Shown piece after piece: positions 3,816 to 59,713 of a DNA stretch of 64,000 nt. The notes under the pieces are model-generated. The model was not told where the DNA came from. It did not search any database and saw only the letters and a list, made by a program, of their open reading frames with translations. Position 1 is the stretch's first letter. Each line of letters begins with the position of its first letter. Origin of the DNA: Hydrolagus colliei (taxonomy: Eukaryota); NCBI GenBank assembly GCA_035084275.1, contig CM068767.1:9610001-9674000 (forward strand), in the 5' to 3' direction. A program made the translations under genes and the position numbers.

Positions 3816-4453
3816 CGCTGGCCGCCCCCCCACTAGGCTCTCGCTGTTTGGACGCAGAGTCCCTCGAGCTGAGTAAGTGCTGCCCTGAGTCTCTGCCGCA
3901 GCCCAGGGACCTTTCACACCATTCACTTCCAGGCTCTGTGTTCAGATCAGCCCAGCAGCCAGACTGAGCCAGGAACCTGCTTTGCTGTCAACACAATTCG
4001 GCTGCTCTCAGCCAGCTGGGCTGCCACTGTCTCTCATCAATACACTGACTGGCTGTGCCTCCTGCAAATCACACCGCAGGTCACTGCTGACGCTCTCGCA
4101 CACCCCCACTCACTCACACAGCCCCTCCCTCACACACAGTGAGTGAAACAGCTTATTAAATCCCCAAATTCCCACTGGAACCTGGCTTGTTTCCTCACTC
4201 ACTAATTATCCCCAATCCTCAGACAGGAGGGTGCCAATGTACCTTGGGCATTCACAAGATATGTCCAGCCATACTCACTCACATCCATTGACAGTCACAC
4301 ACATCCACACTCACTGACACACACACACACACACACAGTTACACTCACTCACACCCACACTCAGACATCACACATATGCTCAGTTACACTCACTCGCTCC
4401 CACACTCTGGCCCTGGGGCCCAACCTGCCTTTATTTCTTCTCTCTAGAGGGCC

Positions 4454-4758
4454 TTATTCAGCGCATTGAAACCACGAATGAGCAAGAATATCTTTGATGG
4501 TGCAAGGGGAAGGTGGGGGGAGATGACAATTGGAGATGCTGTGGACAGACCAGGCAACCTGGCTCATTAGCAGGACATTGGAAGAGCAGACTGGTCCCTG
4601 AAGGCAGTCACTCTTCCTACTTGGCTCTCCCAAGCCAAAGGCCTGATGGGTGTTCCAAGCTGGAAAGCAGTGCTCGAACGCATATCTGCCCTTGTGGTAC
4701 AGACCTCCAGGGAGTCCCTGGTATACATCAAGCTTGGAGAGGTCATTGTCATTGAAAG
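4454..4758 (-). pseudogene. Partial duplicate of the TSSK-like kinase 3' end
   Basis: 4730-4758 is identical to the FNDNDLSKL-coding segment of the intact gene (~5509-5537); 4454-4504 encodes CTIKDILAHSWFQCAE* versus CTINSVLAHPWFQCAEQSV*; unrelated sequence lies in between. Confidence 0.8.
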
Positions 4759-4759
4759 T

Positions 4760-4869
4760 CTACATATGGCAATGACCATATATGGTATCTCCCTGTATGG
4801 GCCGGTGGCTGCCATATATGGTCATTGCCAAATATGTCGTTTGCCAAGACAAACAGTTACCATATATGG
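4760..4869. promoter_or_regulatory. Second CArG-box cluster
   Basis: CCATATATGG at 4776, 4812 and 4860 plus near-matches at 4760, 4791 and 4828. Confidence 0.65.
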
Positions 4870-4871
4870 AC

Positions 4872-5080
4872 CATGGTATCCCCCGATTTACATTTACACA
4901 ATTTTTAACACCTATTTATCGATATATGACATTTGGTTTCATTTAACGACAAACAAATTTGGTGCATCATTTTAGCGCATGTATATATACCGGTAAAATA
5001 TAGTGTAAATACCGGTTTACGATGTTTCGATTTACGTGGCTTTTTTGAATGCAACCCTGTCGTAAATTGGGGGATACCTG
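4872..5080. mobile_element. Tigger/pogo-like MITE (~210 bp)
   Basis: TIRs GGTATCCCCCGATTTAC (4875-4891) and GTAAATTGGGGGATACC(TG) (5062-5080), followed by TA. Confidence 0.7.
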
Positions 5081-5189
5081 TACACTTTTCGTGCCCGTAA
5101 AGTTCACACCCCTCCACCCCACTCGGTTCCCTCGTTCCTCCACGGTTAGGATGGTCTTTTTGTGAAAGATGGAAAAACTGAACGCAAAA

Positions 5190-5255
5190 TGGGCCCCACG
5201 GCTGGAGAAGCCTGAATCCCTGAGGAATCCAGGCCTCTCCAGGCCATGAGGCCCA
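5190..5255 (-). other. ~31-bp RNA hairpin in the kinase 3' region
   Basis: Minus strand TGGGCCTCATGGCCTGGAGAGGCCTGGATTCC-TCA-GGGATTCAGGCTTCTCCAGCCGTGGGGCCCA pairs with five G.U pairs and one bulge. Confidence 0.7.
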
Positions 5256-5279
5256 ATTGTAAATGGAGAATCACCTAAA

Positions 5280-5332
5280 AGCAGAATAGGCCCCAGGGTT
5301 TGGCTGGACCAAGCCCTGGGGCCTATTCTGCT
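5280..5332 (-). other. 24-bp hairpin 10 nt after the kinase stop codon
   Basis: AGCAGAATAGGCCCCAGGGCTTGG-TCCAG-CCAAACCCTGGGGCCTATTCTGCT, 23 of 24 positions paired. Confidence 0.8.
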
Positions 5333-5342
5333 ATTAATTCTT

Positions 5343-6140
5343 TCAAACGCTTTGTTCAGCACATTGGAACCACGGATGGGCAAGAACACTATTTATGGTG
5401 CACCGTTCCGCTGGCTCCTTCTTTATCATTTTAGAGATGAGATTTTGGCAACACGTTGAGAGACAAGGTGTTGAAGGAAACTTTAAAGCTTGTGCTTGTA
5501 ACTTGACAAGCTTGGAGAGGTCATTGTCATTGAAAGGCATGCAACCTGTGACCATCAGGTATAGGATGATGCCCAGGCTCCAGATGTCAGCCTTAAAGGG
5601 ATTGTAGACCTCACCATTGAGGATCTCCGGGGCAGCATATGCAGGAGAACCACAGAATGTTGACGAACTGCAATCGTCAGAGCAAGCGAAACCAAAGTCC
5701 GAGAGTTTTGGACAATTTTCATTGATCAGGAGGATATTTTCACATTTCAAGTCTCTGTGAGCGATGCCGAGTTCGTGGCAATATTTCAGGGCCTCAGTAA
5801 TTTGCTTAAAGATCTGCCGGGCAACCCTTTCTGACAGGTGATGTTTGGAATTGACTAATTCGTACAGATCTAATTTGGCCTCCTCCATAACAATGAGCAA
5901 GGTGTCCTGAGATGCAAAAATCTCATGAACCTTGACAATATTGGGGTGATAACACCGAGTTAGTGTTTTGATTTCACGCTTGAGGAACTTGTTGATGTAG
6001 CTCTTTGATAATTTTGATTTATCAATGACTTTTATGGCAACTGACTTGCCAAGTTTGGGAGAGAACGCTTTCCTCACAACAGAGTACGTGCCTTCGCCAA
6101 GCACCTCACCAAGTTGATAACCCAATACGGTAAGGTCCAT
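5343..6140 (-). CDS. TSSK6: Intronless testis-specific serine/threonine kinase, TSSK6-like (265 aa)
   Basis: Complete kinase domain: GEGTYS, VAIK, HRDLKCEN (TSSK signature), DFG, TFCGSPAYAAPE, MVTGCMPF. Kinase-only length and the IVME..DL / MVTGCMPF motifs resemble TSSK6. Orthology is not established. Confidence 0.85.
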   Translation of the reverse strand: MDLTVLGYQLGEVLGEGTYSVVRKAFSPKLGKSVAIKVIDKSKLSKSYINKFLKREIKTLTRCYHPNIVKVHEIFASQDTLLIVMEEAKLDLYELVNSKHHLSERVARQIFKQITEALKYCHELGIAHRDLKCENILLINENCPKLSDFGFACSDDCSSSTFCGSPAYAAPEILNGEVYNPFKADIWSLGIILYLMVTGCMPFNDNDLSKLVKLQAQALKFPSTPCLSTCCQNLISKMIKKEPAERCTINSVLAHPWFQCAEQSV

Positions 6141-6170
6141 TTTAAAAGCAGCGAGGGAGCAGCAACTTGC

Positions 6171-6210
6171 ACTGAGCCCTCGGGCCGGAGGCTTTATATT
6201 TATAAAGCCT
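6171..6210 (-). promoter_or_regulatory. Core promoter: TATA box and initiator
   Basis: Minus-strand TATAAATATAAAG starts at 6204; Inr TCAGT has its A at 6173 (31-nt spacing); ATG follows 33 nt later. The TATA lies within the palindrome AGGCTTTATA-TT-TATAAAGCCT (6189-6210). Confidence 0.7.
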
Positions 6211-6527
6211 TTTATGGAACAGGCCGTCCTGTGCCCGGCACACTCTGTACTATAACCAAATATGGTAGTGTTTTAGTACGGGACGTCCCGTGATCATCAT
6301 TTGACCAAATATGGTCAAAATCTACATCCAAATATGGTGGTTCCAAGGTCAAAAGGCCATATTTGGTGGTGCTGACCAGGCCATTTATGGGGATTGCTAT
6401 ATTTGGCAATTATCATATCTGTCCATGCCATATATGGGAATGTCCATATATGGCAGCCTGAAAAGGGCGGGGGAGGGCATTGCCATATTTGGTAGTTTTT
6501 GTGACCAGGCCAGTTTGCCATATTTGG
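6208..6527. promoter_or_regulatory. Array of ten perfect CArG boxes CC(A/T)6GG
   Basis: Perfect boxes at 6208, 6256, 6305, 6328, 6357, 6381, 6428, 6444, 6483 and 6518; near-matches at 6397 and 6534. Confidence 0.8.
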
Positions 6528-6664
6528 GAATGTCCATATTTCTCTAATTAATTGAATGGCCTGTGGCAGCTTGTTGACATTTTGATAGAGGCAGGTCCAT
6601 GTAAAACATTTTACCAGGATTCCAGTGACAGATAGTTTTTCTTTGTTCCTCCACCTTCCATCCC

Positions 6665-6961
6665 GAGTCCTGTAGCTGGTTAGAGCATTTGCCTTACAAG
6701 TGAGAGACCTGGGTTCAATTCCATGCAGGGAATTGCCTGACTCCACAAGCCTGATAATGATAATGATAATCCCTCAAAATAAACAATAATAAATTGATCA
6801 TTTTAACCCACGACTGTTTGTGGGTCACTGCTATGCACAATTGCTATGCATTTCGCACACATAAAGTGTCAATTCACTTTACAGTATAGACTGTGAAGCA
6901 CTTTGAGACACAATCTAGAAGATATGAAAAGTGCTATATCAAATGCAAAGATTATTATTAT
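6665..6961 (+). mobile_element. Deu-type SINE (degenerate)
   Basis: tRNA head, Deu core and (ATT)n tail as in 2503-2833. Confidence 0.75.
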
Positions 6962-10221: not shown

Positions 10222-11029
10222 AAAAATATACAGGAGTAAATTGCTATTCTCTTGGGACAACTGTTTTTGTGGGAAATTAAATGGACACACAAATACCAGT
10301 TGTGAGGGCTTATCTGAGACTGGAGTTGATACCCTGGATGAGTAAATATCTACGCCATGCTGTGGCACTGCTGGCGCTGGGACTAACCTGTCATCGTAAA
10401 GCAAAGGCACTATATAAATACGTGGTTCTATTCCCTTCCTCCGTCTGAAAGGCAGCACTAACGCAAAGATGGCTGCCCTACAATACGCCCAGAGGTGAGA
10501 GTATTGCCTCTGTCCCAGCACTAAATCCCATCTCCTCCCCTTCCCTCTCCCCCTGGCTCGGGGACAGACTCTGCCACTGTCAAGCTCTCCAGCATGTTAC
10601 TCCACATGAAGGGAACTATGTAAATATTGTATATTGCTGAGGCTGTCAAGCCCAGGAAAAATAATAATAACCTTTACATTTGATATTGCGCCTTATCACG
10701 TCTTCTAGATGTCTCAAAGTGCTTCACAGAATATACTGTAAAGTGAATTTATTGTACATTTTTGGGATGAAACGTGGCAGCCAATTGCGCAACCAATAAA
10801 TGGTGAAGGTCAGTCCTGATTTATAATGTGTAACCTTTCCCAATCAATACAGATCAAGCCAATGACTTACACAGCAGACCGGTTACTGAAACATTTCTAC
10901 ACATTTATTCTCACATCCCCAAAATTAAAATAAACCAAAAAACTGAAAATTAACAATGCAATAAAGGAATCACATACATCAGACAGCGCTGCCTGAGAAG
11001 ACGATTTAAATAATTTTAAATATATCCTA

Positions 11030-12121
11030 TGTTATTTATTACTACAAACACTTCGTACAATTTATTTCAACAAAGTCCCCCCCCCCACAAGTAATGGAAC
11101 AAAACAGGAATGGTCCGGACAGCTGCAGAGCTAAAGTGGACTTTGCCAAAGAAATGATCGATTACAAACATTTTAGAGGTAGATTAAGTCGAGAAGAACA
11201 GAAATGTGTGGTGTTAAATCTTCCCCCTTCGTGTCTACAATTTCTCCCAAAAGTTACAGTAGAAAGAAGCTTGAGAGGACAAACATCCTCAGGAAAAAAA
11301 AAAGGGGGGGGGGAAAGAATTACCACTGAAGCCCAGAAAAAAAAATCTGTTGGATGTGAAGTGACCCGATGGAAGTTTAGGTGTTTTCCAGAGTTGCTTC
11401 TGCTGTACAAAACGTGCTGACCGACTTTACCGTGGGGAGGAGGAGAGTGGAGGGAGGGAGGGAGAGTTGGGGGACAGACTACGCAGCCTCACAGTAACCA
11501 GCCCCCAATTTAAAGACTTGCAAATGTCAAATAACAAAATTTATTTTTAAAACAAGGGAAAAAAAATTCATAATGGATTTTGTGATCCCCCCCCCCACCC
11601 CACCCTCCCACTGTCCACAAAACACATGAGAAGAGTGTGGAGCGCAGCGGGAGCCAGGCCGACCCACTCCCTGCCGGGCCCTGCTCTCCGATATCTGTCT
11701 GTCTGTCTGTCTGACTGACTGCCTGTCCGACTGTCCGTCTGCAGTGGAGCGCAGCGGTGTACGTGGCTTTGCTGTTTGTGCTCCGTTTCAAAGTGCTTGT
11801 TGGGTTCTGCTCAGTCAGGGGCTGCTGTACCCACGTCACAGCCTGAGCAGGCGGAGGAGGTGTCAGCTGCAAGTTTCTGGGTGCCCCGCTCGCCAACTCC
11901 ATGGACACATGGTCCAAAGCAAACGACTCAAAACACCATGAGATCGTCAGGTTTCATGAGGCTTCTTTCCATCTGGTGTGACCAGGGCTTTCTCAGGCCA
12001 TCTGAATGGCAGTCTCGGTCAAAGTCTTACTTCGGGTCGTTTATTTCGCGAGAGAGAGAGACAGAGAGAGAAAAAACAAGTAAAAACAAGATTGTTACCT
12101 CGCCATCTTCATCATAGAAAC
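11030..12121 (-). other. PRDM2: Probable PRDM2 terminal exon (short coding end plus 3' UTR)
   Basis: Acceptor tttaattttacag|G at 12121; phase-0 reading VSMMKMAR*; U-rich non-repetitive UTR-like sequence; AATAAA at 11061-11066 and 11035-11040 (minus). Confidence 0.45.
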
Positions 12122-54908: not shown

Positions 54909-55054
54909 GGGGTTAGGGTTAGGGTTAGGATCCTTAGGGTTAGGGTGTTAGGGTTAGGGGGTTAGGGTTAGGGTCATCCTTAGAGTTAGGGTTAGGGTCA
55001 TCCTTAGGGTTAGGGTTAGGGTTAGGGTTAGCCATCCTTAGGGTTAGGGTTAGG
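54909..55054 (+). repeat. Interstitial telomeric repeat (TTAGGG)n with recurrent ATCC interruptions
   Basis: Runs of GGGTTA broken by GGATCC, GTCATCC and GCCATCC. Confidence 0.95.
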
Positions 55055-56152
55055 TTTTATAAATTTCGGGGATCATTGGTACACATATGCTTGTGTTTTC
55101 TTGCCCGTGCCCTGTGTTGGGGTTTATCAAATTTCGTTAGGGCTGATGAATGTGTTTGTATTTTTTTTGTTTTTTTAAAAAAAATCAATATTTTTTTGTG
55201 TGAGGGAGAATTTTTTTTTGGGGGGTGGGTTAGGTGTAGTTAGGGTTATTGTTAGGGTTAGGGTAAGTTTTAGGGTTAGCAGTTAGTGGTTAGGGATAGC
55301 GGTTAGGGTTAGCGGTTAGGTTTTATAAGTTTTGGGGCATGAATGAGTTAAAATTAGGGTTCGACGTTAAGTGTTTGAATGGGGGTTCTGGAAAATTTAT
55401 TTTGTGGGGGGGTTTATTCGTGGAAGTGTTATGGTTAGTTAGGGGTTTGGTTTGGGGGTTAGGGGTTACGGGAGGGGGCTGACTTTAGTGGATGGGGTTG
55501 CGTTCGGGTTCTAGTTTTGCGGCTGTCCTATTTAATTATTTTGTTGTTTGGTTGTTTTAATATGAGTTCAATCCATTAGGTGTTATTGTGTTTAATCTTG
55601 TAATCCATTCCCTCTCTCTCTCTTTCCTTTTTGGTGTTGACCAATGTCTATTATGTTCAATGCCTATTAATTGCATCGATTGTTCCCCATGTTCTATAAA
55701 GTTTTGTTTATAAGTTTGTCCCTATTTTTGTTCTTAATGGCACTCCGGTGGGCTGTGAACCTAGTCCTCAGAGTGTTCCCCGTTTCCCCGATGTATAAGA
55801 GTTGGCATTTTCTACATCTTCTACATTTTCTACATCTAATTGCGTATATTATCCTGATCACATTGTGTTTTATGGTTAATCCTTACTGATGTGCCCGTTC
55901 TGTTTTCTATCTTTTTAGGGGTTACTAGGTAGTTACAAAGACCACATTTTGTGTTTCCACAGTCTGTGGTGTTTGCTTTTCTAAGTTTACTACTGACTAG
56001 CCAGTCTTTGATATTCCTATGTTTTCTGTATGCTGAAACGATTTTGTACTCTCCCAATGTGGTGACGTGCCGTTTCAGTCCCTCAGAGAGAGCGTGTTTG
56101 CTTCAGAGTGAGCGATCTTGGTACTCTTACCATCTTTGGTTACTACTTTGGG
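55046..56152 (-). mobile_element. Penelope-like element (Neptune-type), 5'-truncated copy A with frameshifted GIY-YIG endonuclease and 3' UTR
   Basis: AYRKHRNIKDWLV, Cys linker CGNTKCGLC, IYAIRCRKC...YIGETGNTLRTRFTAH...REREWITRLNTITPNGLNSY* (stop 55557-55559); the 3' UTR is repeated in copy B. Confidence 0.9.
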
Positions 56153-56378
56153 CACTGTCTCCATGGTAACCAGTGATTGACAGGAGAGAGACTCGTCCGA
56201 GGGTCGAGGTCTGACGATCTGTAATACCGGCTCTCTGCGGTTTAAGGCGCTTTCTGTGCTGGAATGAAAAAAATTAATTAGTCACTCCTCCGCTGTTTCG
56301 CCAAAGCCCGTAGACCAGCTCTCCGCGGTTTGGGGCGCTTTCCAAACTGGAAAGAAAGAAAATTATTAATTGATAACT

Positions 56379-56419
56379 CCTCCGACGTTTCGCCAATGCC
56401 TGTGGCTTTTTCAAGGAGG
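56379..56419 (-). ncRNA. Minimal type I hammerhead ribozyme, U3:A8 variant
   Basis: CCTCC-TTGAAAA-A-GCCA(caggcat)TGGC-GAAAC-GTC-GGAGG: stems I and II, palindromic ACGT stem III and a GUC cleavage triplet. Confidence 0.75.
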
Positions 56420-57330
56420 TTTTTCAAAAATGATTTTCTGTGGAGGGAAAGACAGTTTCAGGTTATATATGTGGGCAGCAGAGTGAGAGAAAGAGGTTTC
56501 ACACAGGGTGTGTTTAGTTGTTAATGGCTACTCTCCATGTATTCTTTTGTTGGCTGTCCTTTTTAAATTTGAATGTTTAAAACAACTAGGTTAGTTTGTT
56601 TGAGGTAATGTCCTGCTCGTTTAAAGTAATGTTACTCAAATGTCTAAAGTTTAAGTCATTTAGCCCGTCCAAGGCATTTGCTATGACATTTGCTATGAAT
56701 TGTCTGCTTGGGAATTTATTCAATTAGTTCAATTAAATTATACTCTCTCTAGCTCCCCCTGCTGGTATTAGAGTGTTTATTTCTGGTTTTAGTTTTATGT
56801 TTTTTTAACGTTTGGTCTATTTAAATTCTTTTTGACAAAATTGGATTAGTTATGTTAGTTTAAATAATTGGTTTTTTTTAAAAAAATTCTAAGCTGCATT
56901 TTTTTGGGGGTGGTTTGTTTTGGGGAAAGTTAGGGGTTTGTTGTTGCCTTTGTCTTCCCCGTGCTGGGTATGTCGGCCTGGGTTCACATTCACCCTAGCC
57001 CGCTCTCAATTTGTGATCCCACTGTTGTTGTCTGGCAGCACGAATGTTTCTCTCAAACTGGGCCAGCTTTTTTTAAAAAAGATTCACAGTAACAGCCACG
57101 TGCTTGGCTTTTTTTCTGTGTTTACCGGTTTTGGTTTTTTCATCGAGAAACTTTCGTGGCACTTGCAGGGGTTAGGTTTTATAAATTTCGGGCATCATTG
57201 GTACACATAGGCTTGTGTTTTCTCTCCTGTCCCCTGTGCTGGGGTTTTATCAAATTTCGTTAGGGCTCATGAATGCGTTTATTTTTTTCTGTTTTTAAAA
57301 AGAAATATATATTTTTTTGTGTGAGGGAGA

Positions 57331-58071
57331 ACAAACAAACAACAAACAAAACTTACATTTATATAGCGCCTTTCACGTCGAGAGGACATCCCAAGGCGCT
57401 GTACAGTCAGGTAGGACAAGAGCAGGGTGGGAAGGCTCAGGGCAGGATAAAGAATAGTAAGAAAAGTAACTGTATTAGTGGACGAAACGCGGCAGCCAAA
57501 TTGCGCACAGCAGTGTCCCACAATCAGTCACGGAAGTGGGACTAGGGGCAAAAGGGGGTAAAGAAGCAAAAGGGGAGGGGTCGAGGCAGGGGGAAGAAAG
57601 GCAGGAAAGTCGACTGTATATTTGTGGGCGAAACGCGGCAGCCAAATTGCGCACAGCAGTGTCCCCACAAACAATCGCGAAAATGGGGCCAGGGGAGAAA
57701 GGGGGAAAAGAGGGTAAGGGGGGAGAGGGAGGGAAAGGTGGGATGGGATAGGGTTAGGGAGGAAGAGGGGGGAGAAAGGGGGGTAAGGAAGAGAGGGAGG
57801 GAAAGATGGGTGGGGGCAAGATCAGGAAGAGGGAAAAGGGAGGGAAGGGGAAAAGGGAGGAGAGAAAGTGGGGAAAGGGAGTGAGGGAAGAAGAAGATGG
57901 GGGCAGGGGTGGGGGGAATCAAACGACAATAATAAACAACAAAAGCAACAATATTAACAACAAAAACAGCAACAAACAATAACCAACAATCGTCCAACAA
58001 TCGTCCAGCAACCACTCCCTGTCCTCGCCGCCCGCCCGGACGATCCCTGAGATGCCGGGAAAAAAAACCCA
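57331..58071 (-). mobile_element. Composite non-autonomous retroposon inserted in the PLE 3' UTR
   Basis: Interrupts sequence that is contiguous in copy A (GAGGGAGAA|TTTTTTT). Contains two Deu-core fragments, pyrimidine-rich spacers and an L2-type tail ending in (TTTG)n. Confidence 0.6.
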
Positions 58072-58332
58072 TTTTTTTGGGAGGGTTAGGGTTTAGGGGT
58101 TAGGGGGTTAGGGTTTAGGGGTTAGTTTATATACTTAAAATTAGGGTTCGACGTTAAGTGTTTGAATAGGGGTCCTGGAAAATTTATTTTGGGGGGGGGT
58201 TTATTCATGGAAGTGTTATGGTTAGTTAGGGGTTCGGTTTGGGGGTTAGGGGTTATGGGAGGGGGCTGACTTTAGTGGATGGGGTTGCGTTCGGGTTCTA
58301 GTTTTGCGGCTGTCCTATTTAATTATTTTGTT

Positions 58333-58547: not shown

Positions 58548-58850
58548 TCAATATGAGTTCAATCCATTAGGTGTTATCGTGTTTAATCTTGTAATCCATT
58601 CCCTCTCTCTCTCTTTCCTTTTTGGTGTTGACCAATGTAAATGGTCACATAATTTAACTCGTCTAAAGAAATCCTGTATGTCTTGTCCTATTTTAATTGG
58701 GCAGGGGTTTTCTGTGGGGACAAAGGTCAAACCCTTATTGAGTATACTAATCTGTGCCTCTGTGGGCTTAAATGACTGGGAGACGTTTACGATATTCGTC
58801 CCCAGGCCTAGGTTCCCCCATGCTGGGGCTCCTGTTTCATTTAGTTTAAA
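58548..58850 (-). pseudogene. PLE ORF2 remnant: N-terminus fused in frame to the endonuclease C-terminus
   Basis: ...KGLTFVPT...DFFRRVKLCDHL|HWSTPKRKEREREWITRLNTITPNGLNSY*; junction at ~58638. Confidence 0.85.
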
Positions 58851-59713
58851 TAATTTGAGCAGTGTTTTAGTAATACTTGGGCTGTTTTTGCTGTCCACTG
58901 GATTTTGTTCGAATTTTGTTCCACCCTGAACTGGGTGGCTGGGATTGTGGGGATTCCATTTTGGTTTTTTTTGGTGAACCGATTAATTTCCTCTAGCGTG
59001 TCCCTTTCTTTTTTACTTAACTGGGGGCTATAGTTACTTTCTACTGTCAGGATTTCCGCGTTGGGGAAAGCCTGCTTGGCCCTTTTTAACATGGCCTGCA
59101 ACTGTTTAGTTGCCGTTTTGGGTTGCTGCTTCCGGTTATGGATACCGAGAGAGAAGATGACCTTCCCGGTCCCTTCGCAAGGTGTGATTTTACTTAATAA
59201 TCTGTCCACATGGTTGAAGTTTGCCTCTGGAAAGGCCTCCACCTGTGTGTGCGCGTTCGGGCAACCTGCTATTTTTGCGAGGTTTTCGTCCCCAATTATT
59301 ATGACTGGTTTTGTTGGGGTTATTGTCCAGTCTGTAATTTTACGGTCTGTCCTTTTGTGGACAGTTACTATCCCTAGGTTTTTATCATTTCCCTGTTGGG
59401 CCCGATGGGGAGCCTGTCCTATATCTGTTCCTGACCCTGTTTCTTTCTCTCCCTGTAGGGAAGGGGCTATTGCTGCCTGGTTTAACCTGGGGACAGCGAC
59501 GGTAACGGGTCTTGTGGGTGGGCGTGGGAGACGTAATTTTGGTTGGCGTTGTTCTAGGGGAGGGGGGTGGATCTGTAACAGGGAGGGTGTGGTGGGGTTA
59601 ATCTGTATTGTTTTTGGGGGTCTAGCTACCCACCAAGAGCCAGCCATCACCGTCGGTGACTGTGGTCGCTCTTGGGATGCCAGGAGAATATCCAGTTCCA
59701 AGTGTACAGACAC
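58841..59713 (-). CDS. PLE-associated ORF1 with Pro/Thr-rich linker and SGNH-hydrolase-like domain (5'-truncated, frame open to ~59840)
   Basis: VIIIGDEN (block I), VEAFPEA (II), VIFSLGIHN (III), KIQWT (V); the listed start is GTG rather than ATG. Confidence 0.7.
   Translation of the reverse strand: MSVHLELDILLASQERPQSPTVMAGSWWVARPPKTIQINPTTPSLLQIHPPPLEQRQPKLRLPRPPTRPVTVAVPRLNQAAIAPSLQGEKETGSGTDIGQAPHRAQQGNDKNLGIVTVHKRTDRKITDWTITPTKPVIIIGDENLAKIAGCPNAHTQVEAFPEANFNHVDRLLSKITPCEGTGKVIFSLGIHNRKQQPKTATKQLQAMLKRAKQAFPNAEILTVESNYSPQLSKKERDTLEEINRFTKKNQNGIPTIPATQFRVEQNSNKIQWTAKTAQVLLKHCSNYLN

Follow-up and report, generated by a model that had tools for sequence, protein, structure and literature searches.

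A dense CArG array upstream of an intronless TSSK-family kinase gene in Hydrolagus colliei

Results and Discussion

In the chimaera Hydrolagus colliei, ten exact matches to the serum response factor (SRF) site CC(A/T)6GG are packed directly upstream of an intact kinase gene of the TSSK family. Our preferred reading, to which we give a probability of roughly 0.45, is that a locally duplicated SRF-site promoter drives a single-copy spermatid kinase. What is new here is a TSSK subfamily that has no name and a CArG array of unusual length, both of which are variants of known things.

The window is the whole stretch of 64,000 nucleotides that was analysed (assembly GCA_035084275.1, contig CM068767.1, positions 9,610,001 to 9,674,000). 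Positions refer to the window unless a locus or contig is named, and papers given by PMC number are cited from the available parts of their text. The features under discussion are the following.

4410-4758, minus strand: decayed partial tandem kinase copy, matching the kinase C-terminus and 3' flank
4760-4869, unstranded: second CArG group
4875-5082, unstranded: MITE-like dispersed repeat, bounded by inverted arms of 17 nt (4875-4891 and 5062-5078)
5187-5258, minus strand: 3' hairpin 2, its folded stretch forming 34 pairs, -60.5 kcal/mol, z -10.4
5276-5336, minus strand: 3' hairpin 1, beginning 7 nt past the stop, 28 pairs, -48 kcal/mol, z -9.1
5343-6140, minus strand: TSSK-family Ser/Thr kinase ORF, 265 aa, intronless
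6141-6175, minus strand: predicted initiator TCAGT (A at 6173) and 5' UTR, a 33-nt leader without upstream ATG
6189-6210, minus strand: TATA palindrome of 22 nt, holding TATAAATA (6204-6197, -31)
6208-6527, unstranded: CArG array, 320 bp with ten exact boxes, at -35 to -354 relative to the predicted start
6280-6289, unstranded: kB-like palindrome GGGACGTCCC, between boxes 2 and 3
6389-6449 and 6475-6539: internal duplication in the array, 77% alike over 65 columns
6397 and 6534: near boxes in the array, with one and two mismatches, respectively
6465-6470, plus strand: GC box GGGCGG, between boxes 8 and 9

The kinase gene

The initial annotation had described an intronless kinase, and the locus holds one with an intact frame. 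The product matches the Pfam Pkinase domain (E 1e-68), and its kinase motifs are intact (Gly-loop GEGTYS, VAIK, HRDLKCEN, DFG, T-loop STFCGS and APE). The catalytic motifs are also intact across the alignment of the clade described below; the catalytic Lys and Asp and the T-loop Thr, all of them TSSK features (PMC7401350, PMC8042308), are present. The best sequence match in the PDB is TSSK6 from sperm axonemes (E 7e-64). The AlphaFold model (pLDDT 71, residues 130-165 poor) gives a generic kinase fold only, which in structure comparison matches AMPK-related kinases.

The gene is single-copy, its next paralogues being 45-47% identical. The genome holds separate TSSK6 (L002), TSSK1/2 and TSSK3 genes (L002-L004), and a second TSSK6-like gene, frameshifted in the assembly, lies 3 kb from the intact TSSK6 (L012/L018, C33:819424-820211). 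TSSK4 was not found in the genome with two queries, in an exon-wise search that may miss it.

An unnamed TSSK subfamily

Among the best 120 of 932 protein matches, the closest is a 'TSSK2-like' entry of Callorhinchus milii (93% identity). It is followed by 14 clusters with 55-64% identity, whose sources are sharks, a sawfish, coelacanth, caecilians, Ascaphus and Discoglossus and which the databases name TSSK1-, 3- or 6-like or leave unnamed, and only then by ordinary TSSKs at 43-48%. Orthologues include XP_007896091.1 (C. milii), XP_067873100.1, XP_041062902.1, XP_072327008.1, XP_051894941.1, XP_064420767.1, XP_029473165.1 and XP_075451088.1. The named matches in this set are of the TSSK type, the others unnamed kinases. 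A profile of 14 clade sequences was used to score the 7,977 candidates sharing most words; among the best 120 of 1,359 matches, full-length members reached 435-525 bits and other TSSKs at most 323; this separation was broken only by a bear entry whose end is duplicated (382) and by two Ascaphus members that are shortened. No clade member from ray-finned fish, lungfish, salamander, advanced frog or amniote was found among the matches listed. A HMMER search of 1.84 billion representatives yielded one further coelacanth paralogue in the best 150, and metagenome contigs gave kinases 28-48% identical, with no clade member among at least 80 loci.

In a maximum-likelihood tree of 37 rows, 11 members formed a clade of their own (98/99), and TSSK1/2 (99/97), TSSK3 (100/99), TSSK4 (100/100; invertebrate rows only) and TSSK6 (100/100) each stood separate; TSSK5 and the named Tssk7 were outside the trees. 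The clade was recovered in four separate trees. Its placement in the 37-row tree is weak and basal (64/15), and it groups among TSSK rows in a 69-row tree (96). None of 32 added TSSK-like proteins, mostly unnamed and with no named Tssk7 among them, joined it. A tree forcing the chimaera protein and its C. milii match into TSSK6 was rejected (p-AU 4.3e-6), whereas the whole clade as sister to TSSK6 was not (p-AU 0.41). As a statement of orthology, the earlier label 'TSSK6-like' is thus ruled out, the genome also having a TSSK6 gene of its own; as a hint at a sister relation it is not rejected.

Membership in TSSK1/2, TSSK3 or TSSK4 (the last as invertebrate sequences) was likewise discarded, each being a supported clade without the chimaera protein. 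TSSK5 is multi-exon, has an insertion in subdomain II and lacks the Gly-rich ATP-binding region (PMC8042308), whereas the chimaera gene is intronless and retains an intact GEGTYS loop, so that TSSK5 identity was rejected as well. Tssk7 is described as protostome-only (PMC8042308). The protein resembles TSSK3 and TSSK6 in consisting of the kinase domain only, and the family in its intronless gene, its HRDLKCEN motif and its T-loop threonine; it differs in being only 42-48% identical to TSSK1/2, 3 and 6 and 36-41% to invertebrate TSSK4.

Judged by its sequence, the kinase belongs to an unnamed TSSK subfamily, an old clade of jawed vertebrates. The initial annotation had considered a lineage-specific gene family, which finds no support in a gene that is single-copy here and a clade of this age. 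No description of the clade was found in main-text passages of PMC7401350, PMC8042308 and PMC6905558 or in a survey of TSSK literature at the level of titles; the tree in PMC8042308 used whale shark and skate sequences, so it may include a clade member.

The three Discoglossus copies fall into one 90% cluster and lie on three long contigs, and those of Latimeria lie on two. Internal fertilisation is found in chondrichthyans, the coelacanth, caecilians and Ascaphus, Discoglossus being the exception. The holders of the clade are mostly internally fertilising lineages, Discoglossus excepted; the link is loose, because amniotes and salamanders have no listed member.

The CArG array

The exact boxes start at 6208, 6256, 6305, 6328, 6357, 6381, 6428, 6444, 6483 and 6518, which bears out the count of ten within 320 bp in the initial annotation. 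It had also called the cores differing and the spacers non-repeating, and both statements hold in part. Four distinct sites are present when both strands are considered, but the variety was overstated: a single site, CCAAATATGG or CCATATTTGG depending on the strand read, accounts for six of the ten boxes. Tandem Repeats Finder reported no array at the CArG region, and when 36 spacer pairs were compared in both orientations, only 2 of the 72 comparisons scored better than shuffles at p<0.02; the internal duplication, however, shows that not all spacers are unrelated. CArG motifs are kept while most spacers diverge. The helical phasing of the boxes is irregular (1.5-4.7 turns).

The window contains 15 exact boxes, against 6.4 +/- 2.4 in 100 shuffles, and dinucleotide shuffles of 6200-6540 (n=20,000) never gave more than 3. 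In a second sample of the same organism (X5), one contig covers 5055-6706 with 2 differences; since this contig confirms the sequence, the array is not an assembly artefact. The CpG observed/expected ratio of 0.84 at 6141-6300 is based on 8 CpGs and is given no weight.

The CCAT half is present in all ten boxes on at least one strand, and three boxes match GCCATNTT. Possibly, then, the array is functional but has YY1 or some other factor that binds CCAT as its main reader, SRF playing the lesser part; YY1 binds the same box in SM22-alpha, where it competes with SRF (PMC7732823, PMC9185982). However, the CC and GG ends stand at six-base spacing in all ten boxes, while a one-sided YY1 site would need less, and only two partial sites (6397 and 6534) keep CCAT without a full box. 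We consider predominant reading by such a factor quite unlikely.

CArG clusters elsewhere in the genome

The genome (1.003 Gb) was scanned for three boxes with gaps of 2-40 nt, a pattern that would miss clusters of pairs more than 40 nt apart. There were 13 matches, against 5 for the reversed-pattern control. Eight of them overlap in the array and one is the trio downstream of the gene, i. e. nine of the 13 triples lie at the kinase locus; the remaining four loci have one each. The array is the genome's only chain of at least four boxes with such gaps and matches only itself genome-wide in a similarity search skipping very common words. A pair scan for the array's box type gave 34 matches (control 23), 19 of them at the kinase locus; the 11 other loci are at control level.

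In the second-densest cluster found, six exact boxes, the majority of them of the CCTTAT type, occupy 310 bp immediately before a coding exon that we take to be ZSWIM4/5/6-like (L060:1254-1563; C1:136743277-136743586). The gene has no Pfam match and is a 'hypothetical protein' in its Atlas entry; literature tying a ZSWIM4/5/6-like gene to SRF was not found in a survey of titles. The other three triple loci comprise three near-tandem copies, a 49-bp minisatellite and a site among LINE-like frames. Exact-box counts do not rank real SRF targets, because the two EGR-family loci found in the genome show one exact box each in 8 kb (for one locus, minus a 200-nt stretch). In the 10 kb around TSSK6, TSSK1/2 and TSSK3 there are 0, 1 and 0 exact boxes, respectively; none of these loci has a CArG array, and CArG control is therefore not a family trait.

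A scan for two CArG boxes followed by a TATA gave 262 matches (control 90). Those examined (30 fetched of 100 among the 262) are mostly one LTR family and one palindromic tandem repeat. The LTR family is young (L209-L221; e. g. L214:1064-1740, L215) and has two exact boxes about 20 nt before its TATA, one of which, with its flanks, presumably equals the SRF selected consensus. Its LTRs are 677 bp long, 100% identical in the compared pair, and the pairs stand about 6.3 kb apart; dozens of copies are among the 100 of 262 matches, on C1 and many other contigs. The tandem array (L227-L238, C1:154.03-154.23 Mb) has at least 19 units of an approximately 190-bp palindromic element with two CArG boxes, and these units adjoin a repeated exon-like frame. 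At L240:890-1770 (C1:144.19 Mb), 36 CCCATAT units follow one another every 11 nt or so, no more than 3 exact CArG boxes being among them; they are probably transposon subterminal repeats. Two exact and two near boxes with an 18-nt period lie in non-coding DNA at L033:1499-1562 (C6:15373509). Inspection of 18 pair loci, 7 from the 262-match scan and 11 from other scans, and of 7 array loci revealed no protamine-like ORF, and the PF00260 profile had no match in the genome, nor in the controls.

The downstream region and neighbouring sequences

Three further exact boxes (4776, 4812 and 4860), overlooked in the initial annotation, lie 3' of the gene. Within this group, 4807-4836 (30 nt) is 90% complementary to 6429-6458 of the main array. 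The adjoining decayed kinase copy is identical to 5507-5536 at 4729-4758 (30 nt), and its segment 4410-4504 is 74% like 5313-5402. The simplest history, as these alignments suggest, would be an old tandem duplication of promoter and gene, the second copy of which lost most of its coding sequence. Such a duplication would explain the boxes on both sides of the gene without a transposon, and boxes and kinase would have been linked since then, because the decayed copy has a CArG group upstream too. A 100-codon frame in the decayed copy (4457-4756) was rejected as a gene because of a stop directly before it and a 1-nt deletion in the relative X6. The AATAAA at 4435, within the decayed copy, is the only one between the kinase stop and position 4000, and neither AATAAA nor ATTAAA occurs between the stop and 4435.

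Both hairpins lie within the 256 nt past the stop, which match only themselves genome-wide, and their bases are similar to each other (85% over 20 nt). The value of -60.5 kcal/mol for hairpin 2 applies to the mRNA strand, the opposite strand reaching -42.9; the better pairing is due to five G-U pairs. For the two hairpins together, 7 G-U pairs on the mRNA strand stand against 2 on the opposite strand, a weak bias towards the mRNA strand. In size the hairpins are pre-miRNA-like, with stems of about 30 bp, but their loops measure 3-5 nt. No Rfam family, those of known miRNAs included, reached its gathering score, the best hits remaining below it (25.7 bits vs 100, and 24.4 vs 80).

Further downstream lies the MITE-like repeat, presumably of the Tigger/pogo type, whose dispersal was judged from 40 scored of 653 genome candidates; none of 19 fetched copies contains a CArG box. 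On the other side of the array, a same-strand gene with Pfam zinc fingers, which we take to be PRDM2-like, seems to terminate around 10,900-11,070, some 4.4 kb short of the array, as judged from splice and AATAAA signals; a kinase nested in PRDM2 was discarded on this ground. The locus is within 150 kb of the contig end and the window about 85 kb from it. Degenerate TTAGGG tracts flank a 268-aa frame without Pfam match (window 54910-58125; 58844-59647, minus strand).

The initial annotation had also considered that kinase and array might be cargo of a mobile or viral element. CArG groups on both sides of the gene with a 30-nt inverted match would suit such an origin, as would the clade members on several long contigs in Discoglossus and Latimeria and an LTR family with two CArG boxes before its TATA. 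However, gene, promoter and 3' region are single-copy, the latter two matching only themselves, and the supported tree groups follow animal lineages; cargo of a transposon or virus is therefore very improbable. The downstream CArG group is explained by the tandem duplicate, and the best relatives on viral contigs (19 loci) are generic kinases, 24-37% identical. Beyond the CArG motif, array and LTR show no similarity, the adjacent MITE-like repeat brings no boxes with it in 19 fetched copies, and among the repeats listed no terminal repeat pair encloses gene and array.

Variation in close relatives

Three related organisms (X6, X8 and X12) carry gene and array with about 96-99% identity over parts of the locus. 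The substitutions listed upstream of the ATG (6144, 6152, 6155, 6162, 6163, 6186, 6242, 6322, 6350 and 6648) hit no exact box; the list excludes 23 difference rows and the placement of 8 X12 differences in 6478-6790. All three substitutions located in 6206-6389 are outside boxes (p 0.31), too few changes to give the comparison power, and the same holds for the differences of X6 in promoter (5/216) and decayed copy (16/430; p 0.48). X6 is without 46 nt of the array (6390-6435), i. e. one exact and one near box, X12 has 11 and 19 gap letters, and X8 also shows gaps. The array turns over by local unit gain and loss, and the unit loss in X6 and the gaps in X12 indicate that box number is not fixed. 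In X8, one variant turns a hairpin U-G into C-G and another breaks a pair at the base of hairpin 1, which is suggestive only.

The array could also be largely incidental: a few palindromic 10-mers, perhaps derived from the repeats of an old DNA transposon, would have multiplied through slippage and inverted copying, and the gene would depend on its TATA and other elements. The 65-column internal duplication, the missing unit in X6 and the gaps in X8 and X12 would all be in line with this; palindromes abound at the locus (the TATA, two hairpins and the CArG trio), which is also near a contig end. Stretches of 23 nt in L240 and in the distal array match at 83-87%. Yet these matches end with the motif, and exact CArG boxes are rare among the L240 units (3 of 36). 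No similar copy of the array was found genome-wide in the search that skipped very common words, all ten boxes are exact while the spacers diverge, the array ends at the TATA, and three exact boxes were kept beside a copy decayed to 74%. We regard an incidental array as unlikely.

The promoter and its candidate factors

The CArG array runs right up to a TATA, which is followed at the proper distance by an initiator and then by a short leader. Read on the minus strand, TATAAATA starts at 6204 and stands 31 nt ahead of the initiator's A (TCAGT, A at 6173); the palindromic TATA, the initiator and the 33-nt 5' UTR of the initial annotation are thus present as motifs, from which alone a start site at 6173 is predicted. 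The first CArG box overlaps the end of the TATA palindrome, and this overlap might interfere with joint binding. The palindrome GGGACGTCCC was called kB-like by what we take to be the kB consensus.

That the boxes bind SRF dimers is likely, and they would then serve as the promoter; CC(A/T)6GG is the SRF site (PMC9185982). Six array boxes equal the proximal site CCAAATATGG of SM22-alpha, which binds SRF and YY1 in gel shifts (PMC7732823). As in known multi-CArG SRF promoters, the boxes stand just upstream of a TATA. Differences are the fusion of the first box to the TATA palindrome, the lack of a TCF site and the number of boxes, which at ten exact boxes in 320 bp is twice that of EGR1 with its five functional boxes (PMC13114476). 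The consensus (C/A)(C/A)GGA(A/T), the TCF site beside the serum response element (PMC516031), does not occur within 6141-6600; one match lies at 6615. Known multi-CArG SRF targets are muscle and immediate-early genes, whereas the chimaera gene comes from a family of sperm kinases. The human protamine 1 promoter, with a serum response element beside a DNase footprint (PMC4607923), is alike in placing an SRF-type element before a spermatid gene, but there it is one putative element, compared with ten at the kinase.

By analogy with other family members, spermatid expression is likely. TSSKs are post-meiotic kinases of the testis in mouse and human as well as in scallop: in mammals, transcripts of Tssk1-4 and 6 are confined to the testis and to post-meiotic stages (PMC7401350), and in scallop each of the five Tssks is enriched in spermatids (PMC8042308).

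An SRF promoter need not imply a sperm gene. The array could be a working SRF promoter of a somatic kinase, either in muscle under myocardin/MRTF or as an immediate-early gene, in which case a TSSK would have left the testis. A short intronless gene with TATA, kB site and GC box has the layout of an immediate-early gene, and the chimaera gene shows these elements, the kB site as a kB-like palindrome. Moreover, the commonest array box is the muscle-gene site of SM22-alpha (PMC7732823), EGR1 has five functional CArG boxes (PMC13114476), and low TSSK expression outside the testis has been reported (PMC8042308). Against this, the described TSSK subfamilies are testis-predominant (PMC7401350, PMC8042308), only one ATTTA occurs in the 260 nt past the stop, and no TCF consensus lies among the boxes. 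A somatic role appears improbable.

If instead the array is the SRF-site promoter of a spermatid kinase, it would have grown by short duplications and been kept because SRF binds the boxes. YY1 would compete with SRF on the overlapping CCAT cores. As no TCF consensus is found among the boxes, either a germ-cell factor or a protein of the MRTF/myocardin type would serve as co-activator. A short intronless mRNA would start near 6173. In spermatids, double-stranded-RNA proteins delay the translation of mRNAs, and the two 3' hairpins may bind such proteins and act in this way. The kinase, expressed in spermatids like other TSSKs, would activate itself on the T-loop threonine and phosphorylate sperm structural or chromatin proteins.

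Several observations speak against this preferred reading: the other TSSK genes lack arrays, box number is variable, no poly(A) signal stands close to the stop, and no CRE was found by a motif scan of the promoter region. Box counts are also no proof of function by themselves, given the single exact box at each of the two EGR-family loci. CREM drives many spermatid genes.

Implications

TSSKs are male-fertility kinases and contraceptive targets, and for vertebrates the family is given as TSSK1-6. An additional old subfamily, masked by conflicting names (TSSK1-, 2-, 3- and 6-like), alters the history of the family. In a broader scenario, which we put forward tentatively and hold to be somewhat improbable as a whole, a further TSSK lineage of jawed vertebrates has persisted in cartilaginous fishes, coelacanth, caecilians and basal frogs but disappeared from ray-finned fishes and amniotes; its promoter here would be the genome's strongest SRF array and part of an old SRF/actin-sensing spermatid programme shared with protamine genes, to which the 3' hairpins would add translational delay.

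The known targets of SRF are muscle and immediate-early genes. A full-text search, with most subscription papers outside its scope, found no literature joining CArG boxes and SRF with TSSKs, and among the titles listed on SRF, spermatogenesis, round spermatids and MRTF there was no study of SRF in spermatids. If ten SRF sites drive a spermatid kinase, the old idea of SRF control of spermiogenesis genes becomes testable, and this compact natural promoter of 350 bp would be the counterpart of synthetic multi-CArG reporters.
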